Sequence record: SRR31156797_36528
Direction: 5' to 3' (one strand)
DNA length: 39,775 nt
Each line of letters begins with the position of its first letter. Position 1 is the first letter of the stretch. Under the pieces are notes generated by a model, which was not told where the DNA came from, searched no databases, and saw only the letters and a list, made by a program, of their open reading frames with translations. This document shows positions 15,513 through 34,102 of this stretch, one piece after another. A program made the position numbers and the translations under genes.

Positions 15513-17888
15513 ATGGAACAGAAAATCATTATCGCCCTTTCGGGAAATCCCAACGCCGGAAAAACAACGGCGTTTAACGCCATCACCGGCGCGCGGCAGC
15601 ATATTGCCAACTATCCCGGCGTAACCGTTGAAAAAAAATACGGGACGGTTCACCACAAAGGCTACGAAATAGAGGTGGTGGACCTGCCGGGAACCTATTC
15701 CCTGACGGCCTACTCCATGGAAGAGATTGTGGCCAGGGATTTCGTAATCAACGAAAAGCCGAGACTGGTGGTGGATATCGTTGATGCGTCCAACCTGGAC
15801 CGGCATCTTTACCTGGCCGTGCAATTCAAGGAATTGGGGGTCCCTTTGATATTGGCCCTCAACATGGTGGACGTGGCTGAAAGCCGTGGTATCAAAGTTG
15901 ACCACCGCAAATTATCCGCCCAGTTCGGGGTGCCGGTGGTCCCCATGGTGGCTCGAACCGGCAAAGGTATCACGGACCTCCTGGACAAAGTGGTGGAGGA
16001 GGGTGTCAAAAGCCCGGAGTGGGTGAATGCACCCATGAGTTACGGTATCGATATCGATTCCGGACTTGACCGGATTTCATCCATCATCGAAAAATCCCCC
16101 ATTTTCGACAAAAAGTATCCGGCCCGATGGCGTGCCTTAAAATGTCTGGAAGGGGACAGTCAGATCACGGGTTTACTGAAAAGGGATCCGGAGGCGGGGC
16201 AGTCCATTACGGATATCTGTGATGCCATTTTCAAGCACACCATGGATACCCTGGAGGAAGAGCCGGAAGCCATCATCGCCGATCATCGATACGGCTATAT
16301 CGCCGGTATCACCAAAAAAGTCGTCAAACGAAAAATTGAACTGCGCCTCAATTTTTCCGATAAGGCGGACAAGATCCTTACCAACCGGATCCTCGGCCCC
16401 ATCATCATGGGGTTTATTCTCTATGGTATCTATTCCTTTACATTCTGGGGGAGCGAAATCCCGCTTCTTTGGTTTGAGATGTTTTTTGATGCCCTCAAGA
16501 ATGTGGTAACAGCCTTTATTCCCCCCGGAATTCTCCAGTCATTGATTATTTCGGGGGTTATTGACGGCGTCGGAGGGGTGTTGGGCTTCGTACCGTTGAT
16601 CATGTTCATGTTTTTTGCCATCGCCCTCATGGAGGATTCCGGGTACATGGCCCGGGTGGCCTATATGCTGGACCGGGTGCTCAGATGGTTCGGGCTTCAC
16701 GGAAATTCCGTTATGGCCCTGGTGGTGAGCGGCGGTATCTCCGGCGGGTGCGCCGTGCCGGGGGTGATGGCCACCCGGATATTAAAGGATCCCAAGGAGA
16801 GGATCGCCACCCTTCTGGTGGTGCCGTTTATGAATTGCGGTGCAAAACTGCCCGTTTACGCCATGCTCATCGGGGCTTTTTTTGCAAAGGACAAGGCCCG
16901 CATGTTGTTTATCCTGACCCTTATCTCATGGGGTTTCGCACTTTTTGCCGCCAAATTTTTGAGGGGTACGGTCCTTAAAGGTCCCACCACGCCTTTTGTG
17001 ATGGAACTGCCGCCCTACCGAGCCCCCACCCTTCGTGGATTGCTGATTCATACATGGGAGAGGACATGGCAGTACATCAAAAAGGCGGGTACCGTTATCC
17101 TGGCTTTTTCCGTTATCCTCTGGGCCATGATGACCTTTCCGAGACTTTCAGATGAGCGGAAACAGACCTTTGATAACACCCGGGAAGCGACCGCCATCGC
17201 TTTTCTGAATCAACAGCCCCCACCACGGTGGATTCAGGATAAAAGGGATTTGAAGATGCTGAACCGGCTCTATGACGGCCTCGACCGGAAAGAAAATATT
17301 GCGGACCTGCACCGGCACCATGAAACCCTTTTGGAAGTGGCACGGGCGGCCCTTTGGCTGGGAAGGGAAAAGAGTGAAGCGCCCACATTGGGGCTCGAAG
17401 AGAAATTCCGGGCAACGGGTGCCCGGTACCTGAAATATCGGGAAAAGATTGCTCATATTGACACCCTGCAACAGCAAACGGCTCTCAAAGGGACCATGGC
17501 GGGGTGGATGGGTACAAAGCTGGAGGTTATTACCCGACCTTTGGGTTTTGAGTACCGGACAAACATCGCCCTGGTGGGCGGTTTTGCCGCCAAGGAAGTG
17601 GTTATCTCTACCCTGGGGACCGCCTATTCCCTGAGTGACGTGGATGAGGAAGAGACGGATTCTCTCTCCGAAAAATTAAAAAAGGATTCGGCCTGGAATC
17701 CGCTTCAGGCATTTACGCTGATTATTTTTATAATGCTTTACGTCCCCTGTGTGGCGACAGTGGTGAGCATCCGCAAGGAAAGCTCCTGGAAATGGGCCGC
17801 TTTTTCCATTTTCTTTAATTTATTGGTCGCATACGGGGTGTCGCTCATCATCCGCCAGGGCGGTGTGTTCCTGGGGCTTGGTGGATAA
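15513..17888 (+). CDS. feoB: Ferrous iron transport protein B
   Basis: GNPNAGKTT, NYPGVTVE, DLPGTYSL, NMVD, EDSGYMAR, PFVMELPPY, YVPC. Confidence 0.97.
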   Translation: MEQKIIIALSGNPNAGKTTAFNAITGARQHIANYPGVTVEKKYGTVHHKGYEIEVVDLPGTYSLTAYSMEEIVARDFVINEKPRLVVDIVDASNLDRHLYLAVQFKELGVPLILALNMVDVAESRGIKVDHRKLSAQFGVPVVPMVARTGKGITDLLDKVVEEGVKSPEWVNAPMSYGIDIDSGLDRISSIIEKSPIFDKKYPARWRALKCLEGDSQITGLLKRDPEAGQSITDICDAIFKHTMDTLEEEPEAIIADHRYGYIAGITKKVVKRKIELRLNFSDKADKILTNRILGPIIMGFILYGIYSFTFWGSEIPLLWFEMFFDALKNVVTAFIPPGILQSLIISGVIDGVGGVLGFVPLIMFMFFAIALMEDSGYMARVAYMLDRVLRWFGLHGNSVMALVVSGGISGGCAVPGVMATRILKDPKERIATLLVVPFMNCGAKLPVYAMLIGAFFAKDKARMLFILTLISWGFALFAAKFLRGTVLKGPTTPFVMELPPYRAPTLRGLLIHTWERTWQYIKKAGTVILAFSVILWAMMTFPRLSDERKQTFDNTREATAIAFLNQQPPPRWIQDKRDLKMLNRLYDGLDRKENIADLHRHHETLLEVARAALWLGREKSEAPTLGLEEKFRATGARYLKYREKIAHIDTLQQQTALKGTMAGWMGTKLEVITRPLGFEYRTNIALVGGFAAKEVVISTLGTAYSLSDVDEEETDSLSEKLKKDSAWNPLQAFTLIIFIMLYVPCVATVVSIRKESSWKWAAFSIFFNLLVAYGVSLIIRQGGVFLGLGG

Positions 17889-17958
17889 TATTTGCATTCC
17901 CCTATGTGGAAAACAAGTTTTAAAATTGTTCGATGAAGATGAAACGGAGTTAACAAAC

Positions 17959-18426
17959 ATGGAAAAAATGCCGTTCACGGCAGATGGGCTGGAAAAGGTG
18001 AAAGCGGAATTGCGCTATTTGCAAAAAACAGAGAAACCCAACAACATCAAGGCCATAGCGGAAGCGCGTGCCCACGGAGACCTCAGTGAAAATGCCGAGT
18101 ATCACGCAGCCAAGGAAAAACAGGGGTTTATCGCCGCTAAAATCAACGAGTTGGAGACCGCCATCGGCCAGGCGGAAGTGGTTGATGTGAATGAAGGTCC
18201 CACGGATCGGGTGGTGTTCGGCCGTACCATTTTATTGTATGATGTTCAGGCCGATAAGGAAATCACTTATCAGCTTGTGGGTCCCTATGAGTCGGATCCC
18301 GAAAATGGCCGTATCTCCATTAAAAGCCCCCTGGGGCAAGGCCTCATCGGAAGGGAGATCGGCGATGAAGTCAAAATCAAAATACCCCGGGGTGTTCAGG
18401 AATTTGAAGTTCTGGAAATCAAGTGA
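17959..18426 (+). CDS. greA: Transcription elongation factor GreA
   Basis: ARAHGDLSENAEYHAAKE, ISIKSPLGQGLIG; start placed at MEKMP. Confidence 0.95.
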   Translation: MEKMPFTADGLEKVKAELRYLQKTEKPNNIKAIAEARAHGDLSENAEYHAAKEKQGFIAAKINELETAIGQAEVVDVNEGPTDRVVFGRTILLYDVQADKEITYQLVGPYESDPENGRISIKSPLGQGLIGREIGDEVKIKIPRGVQEFEVLEIK

Positions 18427-18435
18427 GGTGCAGGT

Positions 18436-18924
18436 ATGGAAAGAATACAAAAATTGTGCGCCGTGACCATACGCCTTGAAATAACGGCGCAGTTACCCGA
18501 GATAGAGGTCCGTGAGACCGTACGGCAGGAATTCGAGTTTATTCTCGGGGTGGAGCACCAGGTTCCCACCCTTGAAAAGGCATTGGAAGGGGGTTCGGCA
18601 GGCCATCAATTCAGTTTGGTGATCCCTCCCCATGAGCTTTATGGCGCCCATGACCCTGGACTTATCAGGGAAATTCCCAAAGAAGGGTTGCTTAAGCAAC
18701 GGGTTCGGGAAGGTGAATATTATCGTCAGATGAAAATGGGATCCCTGGTGGAATTTAAAGTGCTTGAAATTAAAAATGATACGCTCCTAGTGGATTTCAA
18801 CAAACCCATGGCCGGCATCTCCGCACTGATGGAAGGGGAAGTGCTGGCGGTCCGCAAGCCTACGGAAGATGAAATTTCCAAGGCCGAGGAGAGCCAGAGG
18901 CGGCGGGAGATCGGATGCGAATGA
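18436..18924 (+). CDS. SlyD-like FKBP-type peptidyl-prolyl isomerase (divergent, no His-rich tail)
   Basis: FEFILG..VPTLEKAL, PHELYG, VDFNKPMAG, VRKPTEDEI. Confidence 0.75.
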   Translation: MERIQKLCAVTIRLEITAQLPEIEVRETVRQEFEFILGVEHQVPTLEKALEGGSAGHQFSLVIPPHELYGAHDPGLIREIPKEGLLKQRVREGEYYRQMKMGSLVEFKVLEIKNDTLLVDFNKPMAGISALMEGEVLAVRKPTEDEISKAEESQRRREIGCE

Positions 18925-19403
18925 CGGATTCGGCCTGCAGAATCTTTATTCATGGACTGGAAAGCAGCAATAAAGGGACGAAATCCGTTTTTTTTCGTGA
19001 AAAGTTTCCCCATATGATGATCCCCACATTTGTGGGAACCCTACCCGAAAGGCTTTCAACGCTTAACGATTTTCTTTCGGAAAAATCGGATATCCGGATG
19101 GTAGGCTCCAGTTTCGGCGGGCTCATGGGCGCCCTGTTTGCCATGGAAAACGAATCCAGGGTGAAAAATCTGATTCTCCTGGCGCCCGCCATTCATATGA
19201 TCCGGCATGCGCCGGTAACACCGAGGAAGATTTCCATTCCGGTCAGTATTTACCATGGTACCGAAGACCGGGTGATACCCCTTATGGATGTGGAGGATGT
19301 TGCGGAAAATTATTTTACCAACCTGACATTTCATAAAGTTCAAGACGACCACTTCCTTCACAGAACCTTCAAGACCATTCCCTGGGAAGCTCTTCTGGCG
19401 TAG
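18921..19403 (+). CDS. Small alpha/beta hydrolase (YqiA-like esterase)
   Basis: FIHGLES, GSSFGG nucleophile elbow, HGTED, DDH; ATGA overlap with the upstream gene. Confidence 0.85.
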   Translation: MTDSACRIFIHGLESSNKGTKSVFFREKFPHMMIPTFVGTLPERLSTLNDFLSEKSDIRMVGSSFGGLMGALFAMENESRVKNLILLAPAIHMIRHAPVTPRKISIPVSIYHGTEDRVIPLMDVEDVAENYFTNLTFHKVQDDHFLHRTFKTIPWEALLA

Positions 19404-19423
19404 GGGCGCCCGTGGGGTGTTTA

Positions 19424-20182
19424 TCATTTATCATTTTTCTCTTTTGGCGCATCAAGCTGAGAAGCGTACCAGTCCATCTGACGGCAGACCCCTCGAATAA
19501 TGCGGACCTCTCTTGCTCTTAACGGAAGCCTTGCCAGGAACCGGCGAATATTTAAAAGCCAGTGTTCGGGATTCTGGGGATCCAGGAACCCGATCTTTGA
19601 AAGCATTTCCCTTAAATGATCGTACATGCCCTCCAGTTCAAAGCTGTTGGCCAGCCGGGGTATTGGGGTGTTTTGCGGTGCCCGGTCCGTGGCCTGGAAC
19701 AATTCGTAACAGACAATCATCACCGCCTGGGCCAGGTTGAGGGATGAAAAGGAAGCTGTGGGAACGGTGGCAATGGTATGGCAGAAACGAAGTTGATCGT
19801 TACTAAGTCCCCGGTCCTCGGGACCAAACAGGATGCCCACAAGATTCTCCCGGGAGATGGGGATCAGTTTTCGGGCCAGTGACCTGGGCCGGGCCAGGGC
19901 AGGCCTTGAGACGCCGATACGTGCGGTGGTTCCCACCAGGTATTGAAAGGGCGCAACTGCTTCCCTCAGGTTTTTATAAGTATCCATCCCCTCCAGTACT
20001 TTGGTGGAACTTCCCGTTGCCGTTTTGTTCATACGGTCCGCGTCGAGGTTTTTGGGGTCCACCAGCACCAGTCGATCCAGCCCCATATTGTGCATGGCCC
20101 GGGCCACGGCTCCGATGTTCTCCGGGATCTGGGGCTGAACCAGTACGATGGCCACATTTTCGAGGGCCACTTGTGATGTCAT
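19424..20182 (-). CDS. trmJ: SPOUT RNA methyltransferase, TrmJ/LasT family
   Basis: PENIGAVARAM, FGPEDRGL, SLNLAQAV. Confidence 0.85.
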   Translation of the reverse strand: MTSQVALENVAIVLVQPQIPENIGAVARAMHNMGLDRLVLVDPKNLDADRMNKTATGSSTKVLEGMDTYKNLREAVAPFQYLVGTTARIGVSRPALARPRSLARKLIPISRENLVGILFGPEDRGLSNDQLRFCHTIATVPTASFSSLNLAQAVMIVCYELFQATDRAPQNTPIPRLANSFELEGMYDHLREMLSKIGFLDPQNPEHWLLNIRRFLARLPLRAREVRIIRGVCRQMDWYASQLDAPKEKNDK

Positions 20183-20397
20183 TGTTTCAATAACTCGAGA
20201 ATTTTGTCGTTAAGCTGGTCGCTGTCGAAAGAAAACATAACGGTTCCCTTGTTGACTTCAAAAGAAATTAGTTGGCACCCATACTGCCCTGCCACGGACT
20301 CCAGCATATCCTTGAACTGGCTCGCGTAGGGGTGATCCTCCCCATCCACTTCCGATGAAAAAAGATCCACTTCAAAACTACCTGATGAAACTTTCAT
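20179..20397 (-). CDS. Hypothetical 72-aa protein
   Basis: 4-bp overlaps with both neighbours, suggesting translational coupling. Confidence 0.7.
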   Translation of the reverse strand: MKVSSGSFEVDLFSSEVDGEDHPYASQFKDMLESVAGQYGCQLISFEVNKGTVMFSFDSDQLNDKILELLKQ

Positions 20398-21560
20398 ACT
20401 TGACGATGCCTCCAGAACATGATGGTTCCCAAAGCCATGACAACGGCTCCGGAGAGAAAGATGGTTCCGAAATTGAAAAAGTCAAGGAGCAACCCCCCCA
20501 GCAGCGGTCCCGCGAGCATTCCGATGCTGTGCCCAAGGGCGAGAAGACTCATGATAGATCCCATTGCCCCGGATCGCCGCCCGTCAATGACCCCCATGGC
20601 CATGATGGCGGGCAGGGAAATACCCCCTGCCAGTCCCAGAATGCCATTGATGACCATCAATTGGGCAAAGGTCCCGGCATGGTCCAGACACAACATGGCG
20701 ACGAGTGCCAGGACTCCGCCGAAAAGGGTCAGGGATTCCTTGCTGAAGCGATCCGCGGCATATCCCATGGGGGCCTGGAGCAAACCGCTGATCAGCACGT
20801 TCACCATGACCAACAGGCCGATGGCGGAACTGGAGAGCCCCAGTCGGGTGTCGGCCATTAACGGCAAAAAGGCCCAGGTAAGGCCGATGCAGGTTGTAAA
20901 ACAGGTGCGAAAGGTAAAAATTGAAAGTACCGATGGAATTTTGATTAAATCCATGTAGTCAACCGGTTTTTTCGAGGTGCCGGTTGCATCCCGTTTTGTC
21001 TCTCGTTCCGCCGGAAGCATGACAAGGCAGAGAAGAAAACCGACCAGCGTCAGGATTCCCATGCCCATAAAAGACGCTTGAATGGAAAGCCAGTCTTTAA
21101 TGAGCCCCCCCATTACGGGTCCCGCGCTCAATCCGCCAAAAAGGGAGATGTTGAATAACCCCATCATACGGCCCTCCCGGTTCGGCGGGATCATCTCCCC
21201 CACATAGGCCTGCGCCACCGGAAGTACCATGGCCGATGCAAAACCCTGCCCCAACCGAAGCAGGATCAACGCCGTCACGTTGTCTGATACGGCATAAAAA
21301 AGGGAGACCAGAAAATAAAGAAAAAGTCCCGTGGTGATAAAGGGTTTCCTCCCTTTTTGATCGGAGAGCTTTCCAAAGTAAGGAACGAAAAGGGTTCTGG
21401 TGAGAGAAAATGCCCCGAAGATCAAACCGATCTGAAAGCCGCCGGCACCCAGTCCATGGGCGTAAATGGGGAGCAGGGGCGCCACAAATCCCGCCCCCGT
21501 GGCCGTGACGAAAATGGCGACGAAAAGGGTCACGAAAATTTTGATATTGAGCACGGGCAT
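20394..21560 (-). CDS. MFS transporter (DHA1-like)
   Basis: About 12 hydrophobic segments; motif A GKLSDQKGRK; RLGQG. Confidence 0.9.
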   Translation of the reverse strand: MPVLNIKIFVTLFVAIFVTATGAGFVAPLLPIYAHGLGAGGFQIGLIFGAFSLTRTLFVPYFGKLSDQKGRKPFITTGLFLYFLVSLFYAVSDNVTALILLRLGQGFASAMVLPVAQAYVGEMIPPNREGRMMGLFNISLFGGLSAGPVMGGLIKDWLSIQASFMGMGILTLVGFLLCLVMLPAERETKRDATGTSKKPVDYMDLIKIPSVLSIFTFRTCFTTCIGLTWAFLPLMADTRLGLSSSAIGLLVMVNVLISGLLQAPMGYAADRFSKESLTLFGGVLALVAMLCLDHAGTFAQLMVINGILGLAGGISLPAIMAMGVIDGRRSGAMGSIMSLLALGHSIGMLAGPLLGGLLLDFFNFGTIFLSGAVVMALGTIMFWRHRQV

Positions 21561-21632
21561 ATTTCTTATAACGACGGTTTAACTCACGGTATGCCGTCAT
21601 ACCCCCAAACGGGTCTGCTTACGGATTTACAA

Positions 21633-22262
21633 TTAAAAGGAGACCACTATCTCATTGTATTTTTTTCTCCATTTTGCCGCGTGCAGGTTCAGATCCGGTT
21701 TCATGTAACCAACCGCCAGCAAGAGGGGAACCCAGTAGTTGTCAGGAATCTTGAACTCCTTTCGAACCGCTTCATGATCAAAACCGTCCATTGGATGCGT
21801 TTCAAAACCGAGACTGGTGGCTGCGTACATGAGGCTCATGGCGAAGAAACCCGTGTTTTTTGCGGCAAAAGCCAGATTTGCATCAGGACTCCAGTCATAG
21901 AGAGCCCTTGTGGCATTCAGAAACCATCCCCTCTGTTCCGGCTGCATGGATCCGGATTTGAGCATTTCCCGCCAATTTTTTTCAAATGTGGAATGACCTT
22001 CCTGCCAGCCGTATTTATCCGCAAGAACGATTAGGACCACAGGTGCTTCAACCACCTTGGGCTGGTCCCAAGCCAGGGATTTGAGTTTTTCCTTTTCCTC
22101 GGGATTCCGAAGCACCATTAGATTCCACGGCTGCAGATTGAAACTGGAAGGTGTATTGGCCGCCAATTCTACCATTCGGATCAGCTGAGCTTCAGTTATA
22201 TCTTTGTCTTTATCGAAGAAATTGATGGAACGTCTCTTTTCACTTAATTCCTGAAAATTCAT
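21633..22262 (-). CDS. Nitroreductase family protein
   Basis: RRSINFF, PSSFNLQPW, THPMDGFD, LAVGY; AGGAGG RBS. Confidence 0.92.
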   Translation of the reverse strand: MNFQELSEKRRSINFFDKDKDITEAQLIRMVELAANTPSSFNLQPWNLMVLRNPEEKEKLKSLAWDQPKVVEAPVVLIVLADKYGWQEGHSTFEKNWREMLKSGSMQPEQRGWFLNATRALYDWSPDANLAFAAKNTGFFAMSLMYAATSLGFETHPMDGFDHEAVRKEFKIPDNYWVPLLLAVGYMKPDLNLHAAKWRKKYNEIVVSF

Positions 22263-22351
22263 ATCGCCTCCTTATTGTTATTTTGGTTTTTGACAATCTG
22301 AAAGCTTACCAGTGCCCGATGTATCGTATGAATTACCGACGGACCGGTTGT

Positions 22352-23497
22352 TTACTTCATTCTCGTTTCCGGAAAAACATTTCTGCGTGCCGCTTCCTCA
22401 CAAATCCGTTGGGGCCATACGAAATGTCCACTTTCCAGGTGGTTATGAGCAACGCAGCCCGTGCGGCAACTCCGCACATGGATACATCTTTTGCAGAGCG
22501 CGGGGAACGCGTCCAGATCGTCCAAATCCCGGCGCAGTTTCCGGATCCGGGGGTGGTGCAGCCATATATCCCTGACGGAATCTTCACCGAGCCGCCCGTA
22601 AACCAGTTCGGGTACGGTTCTGCCCATGCCGCAAAGGGCAACCTCGCCCGTCCCCAGTATCCCCAGAATACCTTTCACGCCGCAGTCCCCCGTACGTCCT
22701 TTCCTGCGTGCGATTTCAGGCAGGGGCGTCAAGGCCGGTGGCGAGTTCATGATGACCCGGATGGGTGACTTCCGCTGCAATGGACCGTAAACATACCGGG
22801 CAAGCTTTAACCGTTGGTCCATGTCCAAAGTTTCGCCCCGTTCGTGCATTACCGTCCCCCGACCCCCTTTGGTGGCGGGGTTGATCTTCACCGTGTGGGC
22901 GCCCCCGTCAGCCGCAAGCCTTACCAGATCATCGACCTGTTTCAGGTTGCCGCGGTGTACGCACATGATCACCTGGACGTTTTCGTATCCCGCCGCCACC
23001 AGATGGTCCAGTCCCCTCAATACGGCATGAAAAGCGCCCGGAACGCCCCTGAACGCGTCGTGGGTCTTTGCATCGGCCCCGTCCATGCTCACGGATATGA
23101 AATTTACATTTGTCTCTTCTTTGAGACGGCGGGCCGACCGTGGTGTGAGCAAGGTGCCGTTGGTCTCCATGGACAACTCCAATCCCATATGGGTGAGCAT
23201 ATCCGCGATCTCCATGAACCGGGGATGGAGCATGGGCTCGCCGCCGGTCAGCTTGGCGCCGGACAGGCCCATGGGCTTTGCCTCTTTCACCGCTTCACGG
23301 AGCAGATCCACATGGAGCACATCACCGGGTGAAGGTTCTCCCTTTACATGGGTGGGCGTAATCCAGCAGTGGCGGCATTTCAAATTGCACCCAGTGCTCA
23401 TGTAAAGATAAAAGGCACGGATGGCGGGCACCCCTTCCGGCAGATCAAGGGGGACCGGATCTTTCCATGCGTTGTGGGGAACATCACGCGGGTTCAT
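22352..23497 (-). CDS. scmF: Radical SAM/SPASM peptide maturase, SynChlorMet ScmF-like
   Basis: CNLKCRHC, TGGEP, ETNG, SPASM cysteines (CGV...LCG...CKRCIHVRSCRTGC...C); cassette context. Confidence 0.8.
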   Translation of the reverse strand: MNPRDVPHNAWKDPVPLDLPEGVPAIRAFYLYMSTGCNLKCRHCWITPTHVKGEPSPGDVLHVDLLREAVKEAKPMGLSGAKLTGGEPMLHPRFMEIADMLTHMGLELSMETNGTLLTPRSARRLKEETNVNFISVSMDGADAKTHDAFRGVPGAFHAVLRGLDHLVAAGYENVQVIMCVHRGNLKQVDDLVRLAADGGAHTVKINPATKGGRGTVMHERGETLDMDQRLKLARYVYGPLQRKSPIRVIMNSPPALTPLPEIARRKGRTGDCGVKGILGILGTGEVALCGMGRTVPELVYGRLGEDSVRDIWLHHPRIRKLRRDLDDLDAFPALCKRCIHVRSCRTGCVAHNHLESGHFVWPQRICEEAARRNVFPETRMK

Positions 23498-23588
23498 GGT
23501 ACGGATCCTTTTCCCGAGTCGTCGATCACAAAGACCACATTATCCGACAGGCGCCATGACAAGACCCGTCCTATTTTTTAAAAAAAGC

Positions 23589-23708
23589 CTAGAAGGGCGC
23601 CGCGCTACCGTCATCACAAATCCCATCCGTGTCATCCTCATATCCGAGTTCCACGACCACGGGTTCTTCCCATTCCATAAAAGACTCCCCCGGTTCTTCC
23701 ATTTCCAT
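23589..23708 (-). CDS. Candidate RiPP precursor peptide, 39 aa (MEMEEPGESFMEWEEPVVVELGYEDDTDGICDDGSAAPF)
   Basis: Translated by hand; too short for the ORF track. TAAGGAGG RBS 6 nt before the ATG. Co-oriented inside the cassette. Has a WxxPxV leader motif and a C-terminal CxxG. Confidence 0.75.
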   Translation of the reverse strand: MEMEEPGESFMEWEEPVVVELGYEDDTDGICDDGSAAPF

Positions 23709-23798
23709 AAGAAACCTCCTTATTCACAATTTTTTTCCCCTCTCAACGTGCCGCGCCCCCATTCCCTATCACGGGAAATCCCCAACGGCAACAGCTGT

Positions 23799-23829
23799 AA
23801 AAGGGAACCGGGGCTCGACCCCCCGGGTT
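23799..23829 (-). terminator. Hairpin after the S26 peptidase gene
   Basis: Minus strand CCGGGG-GGTCGAG-CCCCGG followed by TTCCCTTTT. Confidence 0.4.
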
Positions 23830-24429
23830 TCAATGGGGGAGAGACGTCTCATCCACAAAGAGCCGGAAAGGGCGCCGCACCCGCCACCGCTCACCGGATC
23901 TGCGCCTGCCGATGACCCGTTTGCCCATGAGAAGCTGTATTTCCACGCCCTTGGGCCCTGCAAAATATAACACCCGGGGTTCGGCTTTACGGGGAAGGGC
24001 GCCCCTGAAAATGCCCGCTGCCGCAAGCCGGTTGTAGAGTGGGCCGCATAAACGGGATACCGCCCAATCGGCATGCTGGATGAACCTCAGTAATCCGGCC
24101 CGCAACATACCCCTTCTTCCGCCGTGGATCTGAATGCTCTTGGCGCCCCTGCGCGCGAAAATGACCCGGCCTGCAATGTCATGGGGCCGTAGCGCCCATG
24201 AATCCGCCTTGCCGTTATTGTCCCCCCTGGTTCTCACGCCCCGATTGTCAACAGAGATCACACGATGGGTGATCCGCCGTTTTCTTTCAGGCACGCGAAA
24301 AACAATCACATCCCCCAGGCGTATGGGCGTGCCCCCGTATGGCAATACCATGAGGCCGTCCCCCGTTTTGAGCGTGGGATTCATACTTGGCCCTTTATGG
24401 TTAAATAGTTTGAAATTACCCCTTACCAT
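23830..24429 (-). CDS. S24/S26 signal-peptidase-like protein without a clear membrane anchor
   Basis: GPSMNPTL (catalytic Ser), GDVIVF, ITHRVI (His), TRGDNN..D; SipW/S26B-like Ser-His dyad. Confidence 0.82.
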   Translation of the reverse strand: MVRGNFKLFNHKGPSMNPTLKTGDGLMVLPYGGTPIRLGDVIVFRVPERKRRITHRVISVDNRGVRTRGDNNGKADSWALRPHDIAGRVIFARRGAKSIQIHGGRRGMLRAGLLRFIQHADWAVSRLCGPLYNRLAAAGIFRGALPRKAEPRVLYFAGPKGVEIQLLMGKRVIGRRRSGERWRVRRPFRLFVDETSLPH

Positions 24430-25313
24430 CCCAATACCCGTTCGATTTCCTCCCAGAACCGGCCGTGCAAACTGACGCGGAGCCTGAAAGCCGGTATCCT
24501 CTTGGCCATCTTGCAGGCATTGTCAAACAGATTTTCCCTGAATGCCCTTTGATAAGCCACATCAGCCCTTCGCCAGTATTTACGGCATAACTGGGCGGAT
24601 GATTGACTCAGGCAGACGGCTGCTTTTCCGTCACCCATGAAAATCGTCTCATCAGCATCGGACTGCTCCATGAAAAAAACACCGCAGATGGGTACAAATC
24701 GCTGAACATGCCACGTCTTTTCAACCCCTTTACCCAGATAACGGCTCCACGTGGGAAACGGGTGGGCCGTATAATTTCCTTCATGATCCACGACCACCAG
24801 CGTTTCATCATCGCACAGGGGGTTCCAGTGATGGGGGAGCCGGTCGCAGCATGTTGATTTGCCCGTACCGCTCCGTCCCGCCATGAGAACCCCCCTGCCG
24901 TCCAGTTCAAGGAGTCCCCCATGAAAGGGCAGCCCCCCGGATTCGATTGTTTCCAGATAGATGGGATAGAGGGCATTCCACATGGCCGTGATTTCCATTT
25001 CAGGGTTTGAAAAGGGCTTGACCGTGCAGATCACATCCGGGGTGTCATGGTGATGCCGGATGCATACGGCTTCCATGTCATGGCATTTCAAGCCTTTGGC
25101 GGACGATTCCCCAATGAAGGGATGGAGCCCGCCCTTATGGCCCGTCATGAAGGAGATTTCCCTGTCGCCAACCCTACCGTGCGAAACATCCAGTTCCATG
25201 ATGCCGGCCAGTTTTCGAACCCAGGGTTGGAGCGCAACCGAGCCGGTATTCAACCGCCAGCACACATCATTATTCAGCTTCAGCCGGTAAAAATTCGATT
25301 CATGGTTATTCAT
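24423..25313 (-). CDS. scmC: SynChlorMet ScmC-like protein (HprK-related P-loop)
   Basis: GGLPFHGGL, P-loop GRSGTGKSTCC, LCDDE, HPFPTWS, FWEEIE. Confidence 0.8.
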   Translation of the reverse strand: MNNHESNFYRLKLNNDVCWRLNTGSVALQPWVRKLAGIMELDVSHGRVGDREISFMTGHKGGLHPFIGESSAKGLKCHDMEAVCIRHHHDTPDVICTVKPFSNPEMEITAMWNALYPIYLETIESGGLPFHGGLLELDGRGVLMAGRSGTGKSTCCDRLPHHWNPLCDDETLVVVDHEGNYTAHPFPTWSRYLGKGVEKTWHVQRFVPICGVFFMEQSDADETIFMGDGKAAVCLSQSSAQLCRKYWRRADVAYQRAFRENLFDNACKMAKRIPAFRLRVSLHGRFWEEIERVLGW

Positions 25314-26455
25314 ATTATCCGGCCTTCAAAGGGTGCTGCTCCCTCTTTCCGCATCCTCATAAAAGGCAATCTTCCATCCGCTTCCAGGAACCGTTTCAAA
25401 CATGCATCCGGGCCCGGATGGTTTTCTTCACCCAGAAGGGTGTATGCAATGGCGGGGCAGCCTCCCCGGCAGTACGGTATATAGCCGCAATCCCGGCAGT
25501 ATTCAAAATCATGGAGGCGTATGTGGCGCCGTTCCCTCAACCGGGTCAATTCGGGGTGATTTTGCCACACGTCCCTTAGATCCTCCCGGTTTATCCGGCC
25601 AAGTTTCACATGTGCCATCTGGAGGCAGGGCACCATCACCCCGTCGGCCCGGACGGCCATTTTGGAAAACACCCCGCCGCATGAACCCAGATAACCGCCA
25701 TCCTCGAACCTTTCCCCCCTGTTTTCTTTCCGTGCCTGCTCCATTTTCAGCCAGTTTTTCGCTTGGGACAGGGGACCGGCAGCGGCCCTAATGCGGCCGT
25801 TGTACTTTTCGTTGAGTTTCAACAAGGTCTCCATTGCCAAGGAGCGCTCATCCTCGGTAAGCTGAACATGATCCGCGTGAGCCCTGCAAAGCCCCATATG
25901 GGAAGCGGCGTTGGTGGAAAAATCGGGGAGTTTGAGCTCTTCCAGAAGAAACCGCGCTGTTTCCTCAATATCAGTCACGTTACATCTGTGAAGGGTCATC
26001 CTCACGGTAACGGAGATGTGGTGCGCTTGGAGACATTTCAGGCCTGCAACAGCCCTTTCAAAATTCCCTTCACCCCGGAAGGTATCATGGGTTTTTGAAA
26101 CAGAACCGTCCACGGATATTTGAACACCGTTGCAGCGTCCGGTGGAAGCAAGAAAGGCTGCCATGTCTCGGGTGATGAGCGTGCCGTTGCTGAGAATCCT
26201 GAAGCGCATCCGGTTTTGGACGATGCCCTCAATGATTTCTCTCAGATCTTTCCTCATGAACGGTTCGCCCCCCCCAATGGTCACATCCAGGACTGTGCAG
26301 CGCTTCAACTCTTTAAAAAACCTGAGCCATTCCTCTTTGGGCAAATCATTCCCGCCATCTCCGGCACTCGTAAAATGGGAACAATACGCACATCGCAGGT
26401 TGCACCTGTTGGTTATGGACAGATCAACCGTTCTGGGGGTCTTCATCACTCTCAT
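25310..26455 (-). CDS. scmE: Radical SAM/SPASM peptide maturase, SynChlorMet ScmE-like
   Basis: MKTPRTVDLSITNRCNLRCAYC, GGEP, SPASM (CGG...VPC...CRDCGYIPYCRGGC...C). Confidence 0.82.
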   Translation of the reverse strand: MRVMKTPRTVDLSITNRCNLRCAYCSHFTSAGDGGNDLPKEEWLRFFKELKRCTVLDVTIGGGEPFMRKDLREIIEGIVQNRMRFRILSNGTLITRDMAAFLASTGRCNGVQISVDGSVSKTHDTFRGEGNFERAVAGLKCLQAHHISVTVRMTLHRCNVTDIEETARFLLEELKLPDFSTNAASHMGLCRAHADHVQLTEDERSLAMETLLKLNEKYNGRIRAAAGPLSQAKNWLKMEQARKENRGERFEDGGYLGSCGGVFSKMAVRADGVMVPCLQMAHVKLGRINREDLRDVWQNHPELTRLRERRHIRLHDFEYCRDCGYIPYCRGGCPAIAYTLLGEENHPGPDACLKRFLEADGRLPFMRMRKEGAAPFEGRII

Positions 26456-26461
26456 GGCATC

Positions 26462-26746
26462 TTACCCTGTTATTTCATAGCCCGCCAGACCCCTTTCCAC
26501 AAGATCGTCCATGAAAACCCTTACGGATTTCTCCGCGTGCTCCGGCACATTTTTGCATTTGGCGCGGAGTTCTTTCATGATATCATCGATGGTGTGTTTT
26601 CCGTCAAGGCGTTTATAAATGAATGCGCTTACCGGATTGAACCCGTACCCATCGCCCGAATCCGGATCAAAGAGGACGGCCCAGTCATGAAACTCCTCTC
26701 TCAGCACAAATAAAGAATTCGCTACGGGAATATTATCGTGCCCCAT
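26462..26746 (-). CDS. scmD: PqqD-family RiPP recognition element, ScmD-like
   Basis: VLREEFHDWAVLFDPD...NPV..IYKRLDGKHT...LVERGL; start placed at MGHDN after a GGAG RBS. Confidence 0.85.
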   Translation of the reverse strand: MGHDNIPVANSLFVLREEFHDWAVLFDPDSGDGYGFNPVSAFIYKRLDGKHTIDDIMKELRAKCKNVPEHAEKSVRVFMDDLVERGLAGYEITG

Positions 26747-27079
26747 GTATCTGATCTCCATGTATCTGAAATTTTTAAATGATTGTTTGTTTAGCGTAAT
26801 GTGATAAGAACCTGCTTTTTTCCGGGGCGAGTATAGGAAAAATGGCATTGTGGAGCAAGGGAAAAGGAACCACCACATGTGTGGCATTGATCTTGAGAGA
26901 AACAAGTGAAGATTGAGTGGATGCACTGACAGCCGGTTTTACGGAAGACGAGAAAGAGACGGCATACACCCTTTTAGCGAAGAATTACCCGACGAGATTG
27001 TATGCTGAGCGGGGTGGCCGCCGGGCTGTCCGTGATGTTTGTAGATTTATTGAGGATCAGGGGGTAATTTTTCAAAAAC

Positions 27080-27108
27080 TTGTATTGCCTTGTTTGTAAC
27101 GATAGAAT
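27080..27108 (+). promoter_or_regulatory. Candidate sigma70 promoter for the DUF3302-HlyD-OMF operon
   Basis: TTGTAT-N17-TAGAAT, about 50 nt upstream of the ATG at 27160. Confidence 0.5.
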
Positions 27109-27159
27109 AAACTCACAAAATTAAGAAAATCCCGATTCTTTCATCCCCATTCAGCCATT

Positions 27160-27492
27160 ATGACGAAACTGGACTACATTTCTCTGTTTCTGATCTTTTT
27201 TTCCGTGATCACCATTATCCTCGGCATCATTAAAATCCATACTTACCCCGGAAAGGTCGCCAAAGCGCGTAACCATCCTCAGGAAAAGGCCATTGAAGTC
27301 ACGTCCCTTCTCGGTTTGATCGTATTCCCCTTATGGATGCTGGCGCTCATCTGGGCCTACTCGGGGGCCGTCATAGGGGTCATGTATGCCGAAACCGATG
27401 ATAAATCACCGACAGCGCTTTCCGAAGAGACGGATAAACCCCCCTCTGATGCAAATGAAAAAGAGGACCCGGTTGAAAACCAAAAGGCCTGA
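27160..27492 (+). CDS. DUF3302 (YibI-like) small inner-membrane protein
   Basis: IHTYPGKVAKARNHPQEKAI...LWMLALIWAY; upstream of a HlyD-family gene. Confidence 0.82.
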   Translation: MTKLDYISLFLIFFSVITIILGIIKIHTYPGKVAKARNHPQEKAIEVTSLLGLIVFPLWMLALIWAYSGAVIGVMYAETDDKSPTALSEETDKPPSDANEKEDPVENQKA

Positions 27493-27507
27493 TATCACTT
27501 AATCACT

Positions 27508-28638
27508 ATGGAACTTCTGATTACCATCGCCTACTTTTTTCTCATCCGCCTGATCTTCTTTGATTTCAAATTAATGAAATTCAATCTGTTCTGGAAATTT
27601 ATTGTTTTCGGACTCTGGGTGGGGGCCCTATTGACGGAGATACTCATGCTGGGGCAGTATACGCCCTACAGCAAGGAGGCATTTGTTCAATCCTATGTGG
27701 TGCAGATGGCGCCCGAATACGGGGGGCGGGTGAAGGAAGTCTATATCACTTCCAATACCCCCATTAAAAAAGGAGACCCGCTTTTCCGGATGGATCCCGA
27801 GCCCTGGCAGAACAAGGTCAATGAATATGAGGCGCGTTTGGCAACAGCCGGAACAAATGTTCAAAAACTGGGCGAACAGATCGTGGCGACCAGAGCTGCT
27901 ACGGCGCGCACCCGGGCGACCTTGAAAGGGGCATCCGCCAAATATGACATGATCCTAAGGGCGGCGGAAAAAAATGCCGTGAGCAAAATCCATCTTGAGC
28001 AGATTGAGCAACGGGTGGCGGCGTTAAAAGCGCAGCTCCAGGGGGATAAAGCGGCGGAACGGGAAGCCCAACTCGCTTTTGATTCCGAGGTGGGAGATGA
28101 GCACACGGAAATCGCGGAAGTGCTCGCCAAACTGGCCACCGCAAAGTACCACCTGGAAAATACCATCATACGGGCACCTTCGGACGGCTATGTTTCAAAC
28201 CTTCAACTCTATCCGGGAGCCTTTACCCGCCTCAAGAAGCCGGTGATGACCTTTATCAACAGTGAGGAGTACTGGATTGCGGCCAAAATGAACCAACGGG
28301 GCATTCAGAGAGTTAGAGAGGGGGATCACGCGGAAATAGCCTTTGACATGTATCCCGGAAAGGTTTTCCCCGCAAAAGTGGTGAGCGTCATCTGGGCCAA
28401 CGGCAACGCCCAGGGTGTGCCCAGCGGGCGGATTCCCACGGAAGGCTCCGTTAGCGGCGGCTTTGATTTTATGGTGCGACTTCATTTGACCGAAGAACAT
28501 CCGGACTGTCCGGTCCGTTTCGGGGCCAGTGGACTGGTGGCTGTTTTTACAAAAGAGGCCCCCGATTTTCTGGTTTTACTGCGGCAGATTGAAATCCACT
28601 CGGAAAGTTATCTCAAATATCTTTTCAATCCATTTTAA
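27508..28638 (+). CDS. HlyD/YibH-family membrane fusion protein
   Basis: MELLITIAY start, KKGDPLFRMDP, coiled coil, IRAPSDGYVSNL, YPGKVF. Confidence 0.88.
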   Translation: MELLITIAYFFLIRLIFFDFKLMKFNLFWKFIVFGLWVGALLTEILMLGQYTPYSKEAFVQSYVVQMAPEYGGRVKEVYITSNTPIKKGDPLFRMDPEPWQNKVNEYEARLATAGTNVQKLGEQIVATRAATARTRATLKGASAKYDMILRAAEKNAVSKIHLEQIEQRVAALKAQLQGDKAAEREAQLAFDSEVGDEHTEIAEVLAKLATAKYHLENTIIRAPSDGYVSNLQLYPGAFTRLKKPVMTFINSEEYWIAAKMNQRGIQRVREGDHAEIAFDMYPGKVFPAKVVSVIWANGNAQGVPSGRIPTEGSVSGGFDFMVRLHLTEEHPDCPVRFGASGLVAVFTKEAPDFLVLLRQIEIHSESYLKYLFNPF

Positions 28639-28664
28639 TTCCCATGAGATGATTTCAGCATAAC

Positions 28665-30179
28665 ATGCAGGGTGTAACGGTAATGGTTTTCCGGGTAAAA
28701 GTTCTCATTTCACTGTTTATGGTTTTTCTAAGTCTAGCCTTTTCAACAGGCTGTGCACCGGTGGGTCCCAACTACCAAAAACCCGAAATCGAGACCCCGG
28801 ATGTATGGCACGAAACCATAAGTCGGGAAATGGCGAAGCAGTCCGGCGCCACCCTTCAAACATGGTGGAAGATTTTTGACGACCCGATTCTGAACGACCT
28901 GATTGAGCAGGCCCGACAATCGAATTTGAACTTGAAAATAGCCCTGTCCGGCATTGCCGCATCCAGGGCGCGTTTGGGCATGGCTTCCGGTCAGGAGCTG
29001 CCCAACGCCAACGCCCTTGGATCGTTTACCCGATTCAAGCACAGCGACCACGGCCCACTCAAACAATTGGTGCCTCCGGATGGATTTGACGCTCAGAATA
29101 TGTTCATGGTCGGGGTGGATGCTTTATGGGAGATCGATGTGTTTGGCCGAATAAGGCGCCAGATCGAAGCGGCGGGCGCCCAGTACGAAGCGTCCATTGA
29201 GGATTACCGGGACGTTCTGGTCACCCTGTTTGCCGAAGTGGCCCTGGCCTATGTTGAAATTCGTTCCTATCAGCGCCGAATAGAGTGCGCCGAAGCCAAT
29301 GCCGCTACCCAGCGCAAAATGCTGGAATTGACCCGTGCACGGTATGACAGCGGCATCAGCTCCAAACTGGACATGGCCCAGGCCCTGAGTAACCTGGCCA
29401 ACACGAAAGCCGCCATTCCGCCCTTTCGCATCCGGCTGAATTCAACCATCAACCGGCTCGCGGTCCTGTTGAATGTGAATTCCGAAACCCTGGAGGCGAA
29501 ACTGGCGGGACCCAAGCCCATTCCTCTGGCCCGGGAGAATATCGGCATCGGTGTCCCCGCGGACCTTTTGCGTCAAAGGCCGGACATTCGCATGGCGGAA
29601 AAACAGCTCGCGGCTCAGACGGCGTTGATCGGTGCCGCCACCGCGGACCTTTATCCCAGATTTGCCATTTCCGGATTTTTCGGGCTTGAAACCGGTTCCT
29701 TCTCGGACGCGGGCAGCGGATCAAGCCTGGCCTGGGGCGCCAAATTACCCATAAAATGGAATTTTTTCAGTGGCGGCAAAACCCGCAGCAACATCGCTTT
29801 TCATGAGGAAATTGCAAACCAGGATCTTTTCAAATACAAAGATACGGTTCAGAGGGCCATAGAAGAAGTCAAAACCGCCATTGTGGCGCATAGCCAGGAA
29901 AAAATCCGGCGCAACTGGTTGTTGGCTGCGGTTGCGGCAACACGGGAGGCCGTGGATCTGGTCATTGTCCAGTACGAGACAGGATTAACGGATTTCAACA
30001 ACGTATTGGATACCCAGAGAACCCTGTTTGATCAGCAGGACAAACTTGTGGCCAGCCAGGCCAATGTGGTGCTTGACCTGGTTCGGATCTATAAAGCGCT
30101 TGGGGGCGGGTGGTTCATGGAAGAGAAGACTGAAGCGCCCCCTACCGGGGTGAAGAATTTGTTGACAAACGCCCCATAA
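28665..30179 (+). CDS. NodT/OprM-family outer membrane efflux lipoprotein
   Basis: Lipobox STGC followed by VGPNY, WEIDVFGR, LLRQRPDIR, YKALGGGW. Confidence 0.92.
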   Translation: MQGVTVMVFRVKVLISLFMVFLSLAFSTGCAPVGPNYQKPEIETPDVWHETISREMAKQSGATLQTWWKIFDDPILNDLIEQARQSNLNLKIALSGIAASRARLGMASGQELPNANALGSFTRFKHSDHGPLKQLVPPDGFDAQNMFMVGVDALWEIDVFGRIRRQIEAAGAQYEASIEDYRDVLVTLFAEVALAYVEIRSYQRRIECAEANAATQRKMLELTRARYDSGISSKLDMAQALSNLANTKAAIPPFRIRLNSTINRLAVLLNVNSETLEAKLAGPKPIPLARENIGIGVPADLLRQRPDIRMAEKQLAAQTALIGAATADLYPRFAISGFFGLETGSFSDAGSGSSLAWGAKLPIKWNFFSGGKTRSNIAFHEEIANQDLFKYKDTVQRAIEEVKTAIVAHSQEKIRRNWLLAAVAATREAVDLVIVQYETGLTDFNNVLDTQRTLFDQQDKLVASQANVVLDLVRIYKALGGGWFMEEKTEAPPTGVKNLLTNAP

Positions 30180-31002
30180 AAAAGGCCACCACCAGCGTTC
30201 CCAAAACGGTGACCAGGGAGTATGCGAATACCGCTGCAGGGACTACGGTTCCGGGGAAATTGGTCGATGCCACCACCAGGGCCGCCGGAGCATTCCGTAC
30301 GGTGGTATTTAAAGCCAGTGCCTTTTTTTCGCCCTGATGACGCCCCCCCATGATCCATCCGATGATGAGACAGCCCATGAAAAGAACAATGCTCCCCACC
30401 GCGGCCTTCCATCCAAAGAGTTCAAGTGTTTGATAATTGTTCATGATAATAAGGGAACAGGCCCCCAGAAGGAGCAGGTTGTTCAGGTAACGGAAGCATT
30501 TCGTAATTTTTTGAACAACAGCGGGTTGCCAATGGTTGAGGGCGAGACCGGCTGAAAGGGGCAGGAGTTGCCCCAGCATGACGACCTTCATGATTTTCAG
30601 ATAACTCACCTCAAGGGGTGTTTCTTCCGCAAATCCTGTCAGCAGGAGTTTCAGTACCACCGGAGATAAGATGGTGGAAAGGGCCGCCAGGAGGATCATG
30701 AGCCCGATGGAAAGGGGAACGTCTCCTTTGGCCAGGGCCGTGAAAGGCGGTCCCATGGGGGCCCCTGAAAAAACCACCCCCGTAAGGAAACCCGCCGCCA
30801 CCAGCGGATTCGGCTTGAACAGAAGCAGCAGCAAAAAGGCCACAACCGGTACCAACAGCAAATTTGTGGCCAAACCTTTCCAGACGATGACCCCTTTCTT
30901 CAGTGAAGCCGTCAATTGCGGCATGGTCACGGAGGATCCCATGTGAAACATGAGACAGAGAAGCCAAAGAAACGTAACGATATTGGTGGTCTTGTTTAGC
31001 AA
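30142..31002 (-). CDS. Bile acid:sodium symporter (BASS) family transporter
   Basis: Hydrophobic throughout; NLLLVP, GAPMGP, KGDVPLS, TVRNAPAAL; TTG start 3 nt after the upstream stop. Confidence 0.82.
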   Translation of the reverse strand: MLNKTTNIVTFLWLLCLMFHMGSSVTMPQLTASLKKGVIVWKGLATNLLLVPVVAFLLLLLFKPNPLVAAGFLTGVVFSGAPMGPPFTALAKGDVPLSIGLMILLAALSTILSPVVLKLLLTGFAEETPLEVSYLKIMKVVMLGQLLPLSAGLALNHWQPAVVQKITKCFRYLNNLLLLGACSLIIMNNYQTLELFGWKAAVGSIVLFMGCLIIGWIMGGRHQGEKKALALNTTVRNAPAALVVASTNFPGTVVPAAVFAYSLVTVLGTLVVAFFMGRLSTNSSPR

Positions 31003-32927: not shown

Positions 32928-32954
32928 GAAGCCATGTCCTTCCTTGGTTGAGGC

Positions 32955-34061: not shown

Positions 34062-34102
34062 ATCCTGTTCTCCTCTCCCTACAGGTTAAAGCGTCAATTC
34101 CC

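Follow-up and report, generated by a model that had tools for sequence, protein, structure and literature searches.

Organization of the scm cassette

We examined a 39,775-nucleotide stretch of DNA from sequence record SRR31156797_36528, the whole of which is here called the window, with a focus on a 39-codon open reading frame (ORF) at positions 23589..23708 of the minus strand that lies inside a SynChlorMet (scm) radical SAM cassette. NCBIfam and Pfam scans placed this ORF in a minus-strand row of genes that reads scmD, scmE, scmC, an S26 peptidase gene, the ORF of 39 amino acids (aa) and an scmF-like gene, followed by genes for a nitroreductase, an MFS transporter, a 72-aa ORF, and TrmJ. 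An earlier note, made from the letters of the window, had proposed that the unannotated ORF encodes the precursor peptide of the cassette, and our comparisons make it very probable that this is so and that the ORF is the ribosomal, ScmA-type precursor of the enzymes around it. This confidence covers the identity of the ORF as the cassette precursor and not the chemical steps of its maturation. As a comparison set, we used 160 scmC loci, 80 from species-representative genomes and 80 from metagenomes, which included Desulfobacterota, Chlorobiaceae, Omnitrophota, methanogens, and others.

The first gene of the row, scmD (26465..26746, minus strand), encodes a PqqD-like leader-binding (RRE) protein of 94 aa that scored 133.1 bits against TIGR04248 (cutoff 100). 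The ORF listed for it (26462..26926, 154 aa) is over-extended at the 5' end, with the TIGR04248 match covering residues 68-151 of the long form, and the true start is placed at 26746, as 53 homologues from the comparison loci are 89-104 aa long with inferred starts that align with the same ATG. It is followed on the same strand by scmE (25310..26455), encoding a radical SAM/SPASM enzyme (TIGR04250, 604.2 bits, cutoff 400), by scmC (24423..25313), encoding a P-loop protein of the HPr kinase/phosphoenolpyruvate carboxykinase (PEPCK) fold (TIGR04249, 281.7 bits, cutoff 125), and by a gene for an S26-family serine peptidase (23830..24429; TIGR02228, 57.1 bits, cutoff 51.85; PF10502). The S26 protein carries GPSMNPT (Ser15) and THRV (His54) and is without an N-terminal hydrophobic segment or membrane helix, and it is the candidate leader peptidase of the cassette. 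On the far side of the 39-aa ORF, the scmF-like gene (22352..23497, minus strand) encodes another radical SAM/SPASM enzyme, for which TIGR04251 was clearly the top family (328.2 bits, E = 7.1e-98, the cutoff of 400 bits not being reached; second-best family at 133.9 bits). By its sequence, we regard the product as a divergent ScmF-like enzyme. With CNLRCAYC at residue 18 of ScmE and CNLKCRHC at residue 37 of the ScmF-like protein, both have CxxxCxxC and seven C-terminal Cys residues each, which is the full SPASM pattern, and the catalytic motifs of ScmE, the ScmF-like protein, ScmC, and the S26 peptidase all read as intact.

The 39-aa ORF and its product

Re-translation of 23589..23708 matched the 39 residues quoted earlier, with the stop codon at 23589..23591. 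A Shine-Dalgarno sequence, TAAGGAGG, was read directly at 23715..23722 on the minus strand, separated from the ATG by a 6-nt spacer (TTTCTT). The peptide contains 9 Glu and 5 Asp (14 acidic residues), no Lys, Arg, or His, and a single Cys (C31), and it has a net charge of -14 with 36% D/E. The description given in the earlier note, a minus-strand ORF of this composition with a ribosome-binding site and a position between the S26 and scmF genes, was thus accurate throughout.

The best explanation of the sequence is a precursor with an acidic leader of 29 residues and a single core module of 10 residues. The putative leader (residues 1-29; 23622..23708, minus strand) contains W13-E-E-P16-V-V-V-E-L21 and T27-D-G29 and aligns to positions 1-19 of the family profile described below. 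The putative core (residues 30-39; 23592..23621, minus strand) reads I-C31-D-D-G34-S35-A-A-P-F, which is one C-x-x-G-S-x-A module in which Ser35 is the sole hydroxyl residue and 8 residues lie C-terminal of C31. Met11 is a second in-frame ATG with GGGGGAG upstream, and two start sites are possible, so that an alternative product of 29 aa beginning with MEWEEP may also be made. The first 10 codons, MEMEEPGESF (23679..23708, minus strand), partly echo the next block, MEWEEP, and the gene appears to open with a small internal duplication, two tandem blocks of eight codons each (MEMEEP../MEWEEP..).

Upstream of the ORF, directly after the S26 stop, a terminator-like hairpin is predicted at 23808..23826 (minus strand) from a match to the consensus, with CCGGGG-GGTCGAG-CCCCGG followed by the T-rich TTCCCTTTTA. 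A sigma-70 promoter scan found nothing resembling a promoter immediately before the ORF. Downstream, 91 nt separate its stop from the scmF-like gene, a distance too short to hold lost modules. No RNA run with the sequence was listed among public runs; the one run listed with it is of DNA and may be the source sample itself. Among 5.8 billion predicted proteins, searched with a 40-aa query that included 1 additional upstream codon, no candidate had three 5-residue words in common with the peptide, the peptide itself included, and it seems not to be gene-called elsewhere.

An independent family profile points to the ORF as precursor

We compared the window peptide by phmmer with all ORFs of 15-120 aa in the first 80 loci, and nearly all matches lay on the scmC strand just upstream of scmC. 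In the small proteins encoded by the matching ORFs, C-x-x-G-[S/T]-x-A repeats come after a leader of the kind MKK.KYEKP.L..L. A profile that started from the window peptide, with 47 ORFs matched in 33 of the 80 loci, was dropped as circular. An independent profile, which avoids this circularity, was seeded from an ORF of a comparison locus (L044:7504-7740) and iterated on ORFs of the loci only (85 ORFs, 80 loci), with no input from the window. It scored the 39-aa ORF at E = 1.2e-5 (20.9 bits) and ranked it first of the 676 window ORFs of at least 15 aa, with the next ORF at E = 0.73. The alignment spans residues 11-37 (Met11 to Ala37) of the peptide, and the best of 2,000 shuffles of the peptide reached 5.3 bits.

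Similar small ORFs, which the earlier note expected at other scm loci, are present there: over all 160 loci, the independent profile identified 160 ORFs in 119 loci, and the 41 loci without a match were mostly short contigs. Where scmC is flanked by 1.5 kb or more on both sides (85 loci), 74 loci contain a profile-positive ORF. Within the 39.8-kb window, the same profile found no second ScmA-like ORF. The division into leader and core that had been proposed also proved to be in the right register, as WEEPVVVEL falls on the family pattern [Y/W]E.P.L..L and GICDDGSAA on the first G.C..G[S/T].A module.

The precursor family itself is already catalogued. The earlier note took the Scm families to be defined without an identified precursor, which is wrong, as an NCBIfam scan of the relatives identified TIGR04252, named "SCM_precur_ScmA, SynChlorMet cassette protein ScmA" (equivalog). 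At E ≤ 1e-3, this model recognizes 24 of the 144 peptides of our alignment, those 24 having no other family match, and in a first scan, the relatives scored 9.7-15.2 bits. The cassette context of ScmA is present in the window, with ScmC, ScmD, and ScmE over their cutoffs and ScmF as the best match below its cutoff. Because the precursor family is catalogued, the window peptide adds a member to it and does not supply a missing substrate. The idea that the locus is a complete and biochemically uncharacterized system for a ribosomally synthesized and modified peptide holds in its second part, as no publication on the SynChlorMet system, its product, TIGR04248-04252, or PF27840 was found in a search of the main texts of open-access papers, and fails in so far as it was meant to complete a system that had no substrate. 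The main text of the RRE-Finder paper (PMC7470986) contains none of the terms "SCM," "TIGR042," and "HPr kinase," and supplements may list such families.

Anatomy and size of the ScmA-like family

The alignment of ScmA-like peptides (A3) comprises 144 sequences, namely, 143 unique relatives and the window peptide. In the leader, profile position 3 is Tyr or Trp and position 6 is Pro in all 141 relatives that could be counted there, and 100 of the 141 have Leu, Ile, or Val at position 8 and Leu at position 11. A small residue stands four positions before the first Cys (Ala in 65, Gly in 23, Val in 12, Ser in 9, and Thr in 8), and Gly stands two before it in 122 of 143 relatives. The first Cys is present in 139 of 143, with Gly at +3 in 144 of 145 and Ser or Thr at +4 in 93 of 145. 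Over all cores, 562 of 701 Cys residues (80%) lie within C-x-x-G, and the most common distance from Cys to Cys is 10 residues (238 cases), ahead of 11 (117) and 9 (71). The peptides end 6-8 residues past the last Cys in 110 of 143 relatives.

Each of these features occurs once in the window peptide (W13, E14, P16, V18, L21, T27, G29, C31, G34, S35, and A37), and its end, 8 residues past C31, is inside the modal range of the family. The leader pattern [Y/W]E.P.L..L and the small-x-G-x-C-x-x-G pattern that mark the broad ScmA-like family are both found in it, and the several modules with C-x-x-G about 10 residues apart are not, as it has one Cys.

The commonest gene order of the cassette is D-E-F-a-C-S26 (a, peptide gene), which was complete in 23 loci, and most other loci show shortened versions of it. 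Relative to scmC, a peptide gene was upstream in 99 loci and downstream in 21, with 12 loci having one on both sides. An S26 homologue was identified in 121 of the 160 loci, usually directly after scmC, as in the window. In 3 loci (L023:9327-11381, L035:8837-10834, and L149:3654-5642), the S26 frame after scmC extends over about 2 kb from stop to stop, against about 0.65 kb otherwise, which suggests fusion to another domain. Multiple copies occur in some loci (L092:136-3127 on the plus strand, L050, L071, and L149), with 4-6 ScmA-like paralogues alongside two or three copies of scmC; in L092, five precursors precede scmC and one follows it, and several of these peptides are acidic and Trp-rich.

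ScmC gave 910 matches at E ≤ 1e-3. The ScmA-like profile matched 3,091 representatives of 50%-identity clusters at E ≤ 1e-3, of which 107 were at E ≤ 1e-10, and 3,091 is an upper bound, because some of the top matches are repeat proteins of 770-1,843 aa that may be unrelated. In these long proteins (P0121-P0124, P0144, and P0198), the repeat part of the profile recurs in 5-11 stretches each, with E-values down to 4.5e-31, and they may represent either giant substrates with Cys repeats or repeat proteins rich in Cys and Gly that have no relation to ScmA.

A divergent one-module member of the family

Judged by its residues, the window peptide is a divergent, unusually short, one-Cys, and very acidic member of the catalogued ScmA family. 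Several observations weigh against taking it as a working precursor of the cassette. A single core Cys occurs in only 1 of the 160 profile-positive ORFs (two Cys in 6, most having 3-6), and the Cys of the second module, found in 141 of 144 relatives, is missing. The charge of -14 and the D/E content of 36% lie beyond those of all 143 relatives, whose minimum is -10 and maximum 22%. The gene order of the window, D-E-C-S26-a-F, was found in none of the 160 loci. The nearest cassettes (L081-L083, with 59-64% ScmC identity) encode peptides of 61-76 aa with 4-7 Cys after scmC, with leaders (MEW.EPRIVVL and MKWEEPRIVVM) that are close to MEWEEPVVVEL of the window peptide. The peptide gave no match to TIGR04252 (cutoff 35 bits) even at E ≤ 10, and the neighboring ScmF-like protein is under the 400-bit cutoff of its family. 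No close homologue of the peptide was found in the 5.8 billion predicted proteins and no syntenic orthologue.

One-module ORFs are not confined to the window. The lone one-Cys ORF among the profile-positive set encodes 30 aa (L050:9882-9974, E = 1.3e-4) in a locus with many paralogues, and weaker one-Cys ORFs at E = 0.05-0.1 are the second gene of a tandem pair in L039 and another in L004/L091. In L039 (7412-7827, plus strand), from a Candidatus Aerophobetes metagenome-assembled genome, two tandem short ScmA-like genes that both start with MGKNAK occupy the canonical slot between scmF and scmC, one encoding a two-Cys peptide (50 aa) and the other a one-Cys peptide (about 42 aa from an internal ATG) that ends C-V-N-N-G-S-L-P-N-H-I-P. 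This pair is the best parallel to the one-module peptide of the window.

The most far-reaching interpretation, held at somewhat less than an even chance, is that the 39-aa peptide is a functional and naturally minimal ScmA, in which a 29-residue leader precedes a single C-x-x-G-S-x-A module. We consider it unlikely that the ORF is instead a decayed remnant of a multimodule scmA, left by a deletion or rearrangement that took away modules 2 onward and brought the gene next to scmF, with the cassette inactive or its precursor elsewhere in the genome. Decay of this kind would account for the rarity of one-module forms (1 of 160 at E ≤ 1e-3), the unique gene order, the outlying composition, the 4-7 Cys in the peptides of the nearest cassettes, and the mere 91 nt from the stop to scmF. 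The same 91 nt, however, cannot hold leftover modules, the strong ribosome-binding site is kept, and the leader and first module retain every near-invariant residue. All enzymes retain their catalytic motifs, and short ORFs with one or two modules stand at canonical positions elsewhere (L039, L018, and L057). The main argument against a remnant is that the peptide ends in a family-typical tail of 8 residues, in combination with the complete module, the strong ribosome-binding site, and the intact operon; a complete module with such a tail argues against arbitrary truncation.

Much less probable still is that the peptide serves as a leader-only decoy or regulator, which would bind ScmD and tune the maturation of other precursors. 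The intact leader with its minimal core, the extreme acidity unlike that of other members, and the terminator-like hairpin upstream, which suggests separate transcription, would suit such a role, but the C-x-x-G-S-x-A module is fully conserved and would not be needed by a decoy, and the window is without any other precursor. We know of no precedent for a leader-only decoy. A chance intergenic ORF, or a real gene in the form of the 164-aa antisense ORF at 23421..23915 (plus strand), is hardly credible. Short ORFs are plentiful here (164 of at least 30 aa in 17000..31000), and a pair of long antisense ORFs lies across the 39-aa ORF, yet the profile separates the 39-aa ORF from the next (E = 1.2e-5 vs 0.73) and from its shuffles (20.9 vs 5.3 bits), its strand, ribosome-binding site, and position in the cassette all fit, and the antisense ORFs run into the coding sequences of scmF and the S26 gene, with no Pfam match for either at E ≤ 0.1. 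Both antisense ORFs (23421..23915 and 23629..23970) were rejected as genes for want of a Pfam match at that threshold.

Proposed maturation of the peptide

Taking the 39-aa peptide as a functional precursor, ScmD, as the PqqD-type recognition protein, would bind the W13-x-x-P16-x-V-x-x-L21 block of the leader. Proteins of the PqqD type read a YxxPxL motif directly. Conservation of YxxPxL in the leaders of lasso peptides is described in PMC10368454, and the Y/W-x-x-P-x-L block of the ScmA-like family corresponds to this motif. The earlier note had suggested co-folding of ScmD with the peptide; the co-fold scored 0.50, whereas the best of 3 controls scored 0.02. Between runs, at least 92% of the contacts were shared, and the predicted local distance difference test (pLDDT) value of the partner was at least 56. 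Of 78 solved complexes, 51 reach the mark used for a pass, as do 2 of 108 mismatched pairs; at scores ≤ 0.60, however, just 5 of the 78 reach it, and the 4 mismatches (of 180) that passed all lie in this range. The prediction passed and speaks weakly for binding. The pass may reflect likeness to solved complexes of recognition proteins and leaders from other families.

ScmE and ScmF would then act on the C31-x-x-G34 module. A thioether between the Cys sulfur and a neighboring carbon (-2 Da) is the most likely single reaction, and we put it forward tentatively, as it is favored over other reactions while falling well below an even chance. The nearest solved relatives of the two enzymes are SkfB (a thioether-forming enzyme), a streptide-type enzyme (5v1q), PqqE, and BlsE, with SkfB (7e-19), 5v1q "Radical SAM," and PqqE as the closest solved sequences of ScmE; this mixture of relatives leaves the chemistry unfixed by homology.

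ScmC carries a His/GxxGxGKS/DD motif (H131, G146-x-x-G149-x-G151-K152-S153, and D168-D169), of which H131, G151, K152, S153, D168, and D169 show no variation across 27 aligned ScmC sequences. Its AlphaFold model (pLDDT 88.9) gave PEPCK as the top Foldseek match (E = 1.4e-8, TMq about 0.5), and a ScmC profile searched against PDB sequences matched HPr kinase weakly (E = 0.021); PEPCK and HPr kinase belong to one fold class. A comparable motif (H148-G163-G166-G168-K169-S170-D186-D187) is given in PMC10368454 for BsfK, a lasso-precursor kinase whose target is a core Ser and whose activity is stimulated by a PqqD-type partner. Set side by side by the positions reported there, the motif spacing of ScmC is the same as that of BsfK except for being one residue shorter before DD. 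By this analogy, ScmC is predicted to be a peptide kinase and would phosphorylate Ser35 of the core, a step that we again rate as doubtful enough to be only a working proposal. Counting against it, Ser or Thr at +4 is found in 45% of all modules of the family, which weakens a model of one phosphorylation per module.

In the last step, the soluble S26 Ser/His peptidase would cut after T27-D-G29 (small-x-Gly) and free an anionic product of about 10 residues. Signal peptidases follow a -3/-1 rule, which the site fits, as it does the preference for Ala, Gly, Val, Ser, or Thr at that column.

If the peptide is matured, SynChlorMet chemistry would be intramodular, taking place within about ten residues around one Cys and using two radical SAM/SPASM enzymes and a kinase-like protein. 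Maturation would yield a modified decapeptide, small and strongly anionic, as against the polycrosslinked cores of 30-80 residues in the relatives, and the operon would be the simplest setting for working out the chemistry of a class with about 3,000 precursor clusters at 50% identity (an upper bound). The SynChlorMet cassette is widespread, and as TIGR04252 is too narrow (24 of 144 peptides), such precursors remain unannotated. The one-module form is the sole distinctive value of the window peptide, as a potential minimal substrate. A core of 10 residues with one Cys and one Ser leaves a handful of possible modifications, each readable as a single mass shift, which makes the operon a convenient entry point at the bench.

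Genes around the cassette

Downstream of the scmF-like gene on the minus strand lie a nitroreductase-family gene (21633..22262; PF00881, 97.4 bits) and an MFS transporter gene (20394..21560; PF07690, 183.6 bits), the latter a candidate exporter. Homologues of these two genes were found in none of the 160 scmC loci, and they were ruled out on this count as conserved parts of the cassette; that they belong to the system is doubtful. The acidic 72-aa ORF (20179..20397, minus strand) has 4-nt overlaps with the MFS stop and the TrmJ start and gave no NCBIfam or Pfam match.

Upstream of the scm operon and divergent from it, the plus-strand region 27160..30179 encodes a DUF3302 protein (PF11742, 53.9 bits), a periplasmic adaptor of the EmrA/HlyD type, and an outer-membrane factor of the NodT type (TIGR01845, 327.5 bits), which might make up a tripartite exporter with the MFS protein, whose gene (20394..21560) lies at the opposite end of the operon. 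Neither these genes nor the MFS gene are conserved across the other scm loci. The remaining window is an ordinary anaerobe chromosome, with FeoB, GreA, histidine kinases, beta-oxidation genes, and a glycyl-radical enzyme with its activase. This glycyl-radical enzyme, encoded within 31989..36631 (minus strand), is closest to (2S)-3-sulfopropanediol dehydratase HpsG (NF048011, 810.3 bits, the cutoff of 1000 not being reached). A radical-SAM/ferredoxin-type activase (31989..32927) is encoded two genes downstream of it, with a phosphofructokinase-family gene in between.

Comparison with known systems

Sactipeptides and ranthipeptides (SkfB, AlbA, PapB, and StsB systems) resemble the window cassette in having a Cys-bearing core, radical SAM/SPASM maturases, and guidance by a leader, and the family models of PapB, StsB, AlbA, and SkfB gave secondary matches. 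The cassette differs from them in its two separate maturases, stand-alone recognition protein, kinase-like protein, and S26 peptidase. To our knowledge, a C-x-x-G repeat with a spacing of about 10 residues is not a motif of the sactipeptide and ranthipeptide classes.

Precursors with repeated Cys are also found in the ACGX (TIGR04340), GeoRSP (TIGR04303), and SCIFF systems. The maturase models of GeoRSP and ACGX gave secondary matches to ScmE and ScmF, far under their cutoffs, and the cassette differs from all three systems in its repeat motif and accessory genes.

With phosphorylated lasso peptides (BsfA/BsfB1/BsfK; PMC10368454), the cassette has in common a YxxPxL-type leader, a stand-alone PqqD-like protein, and the kinase motif. 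It differs in having Val in place of Leu in the leader motif and radical SAM enzymes in place of the lasso machinery, and ScmC is a predicted kinase. NCBIfam and Pfam scans identified neither an asparagine-synthetase-like lasso cyclase nor a B2 cysteine, transglutaminase-like protease among the ten operon proteins.

The closest system is the ScmA/SCM cassette itself (TIGR04252 for ScmA, TIGR04249/PF27840 for ScmC, TIGR04248 for ScmD, TIGR04250 for ScmE, and TIGR04251 for ScmF). Compared with its ScmA relatives, which usually have 3-6 modules, the window peptide has one, carries a charge of -14, and is without a Lys-rich N-terminus, and its gene stands after the S26 gene and before scmF, whereas the canonical place is between scmF and scmC. 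The flanking proteins, the leader pattern, and the module are the same in both.

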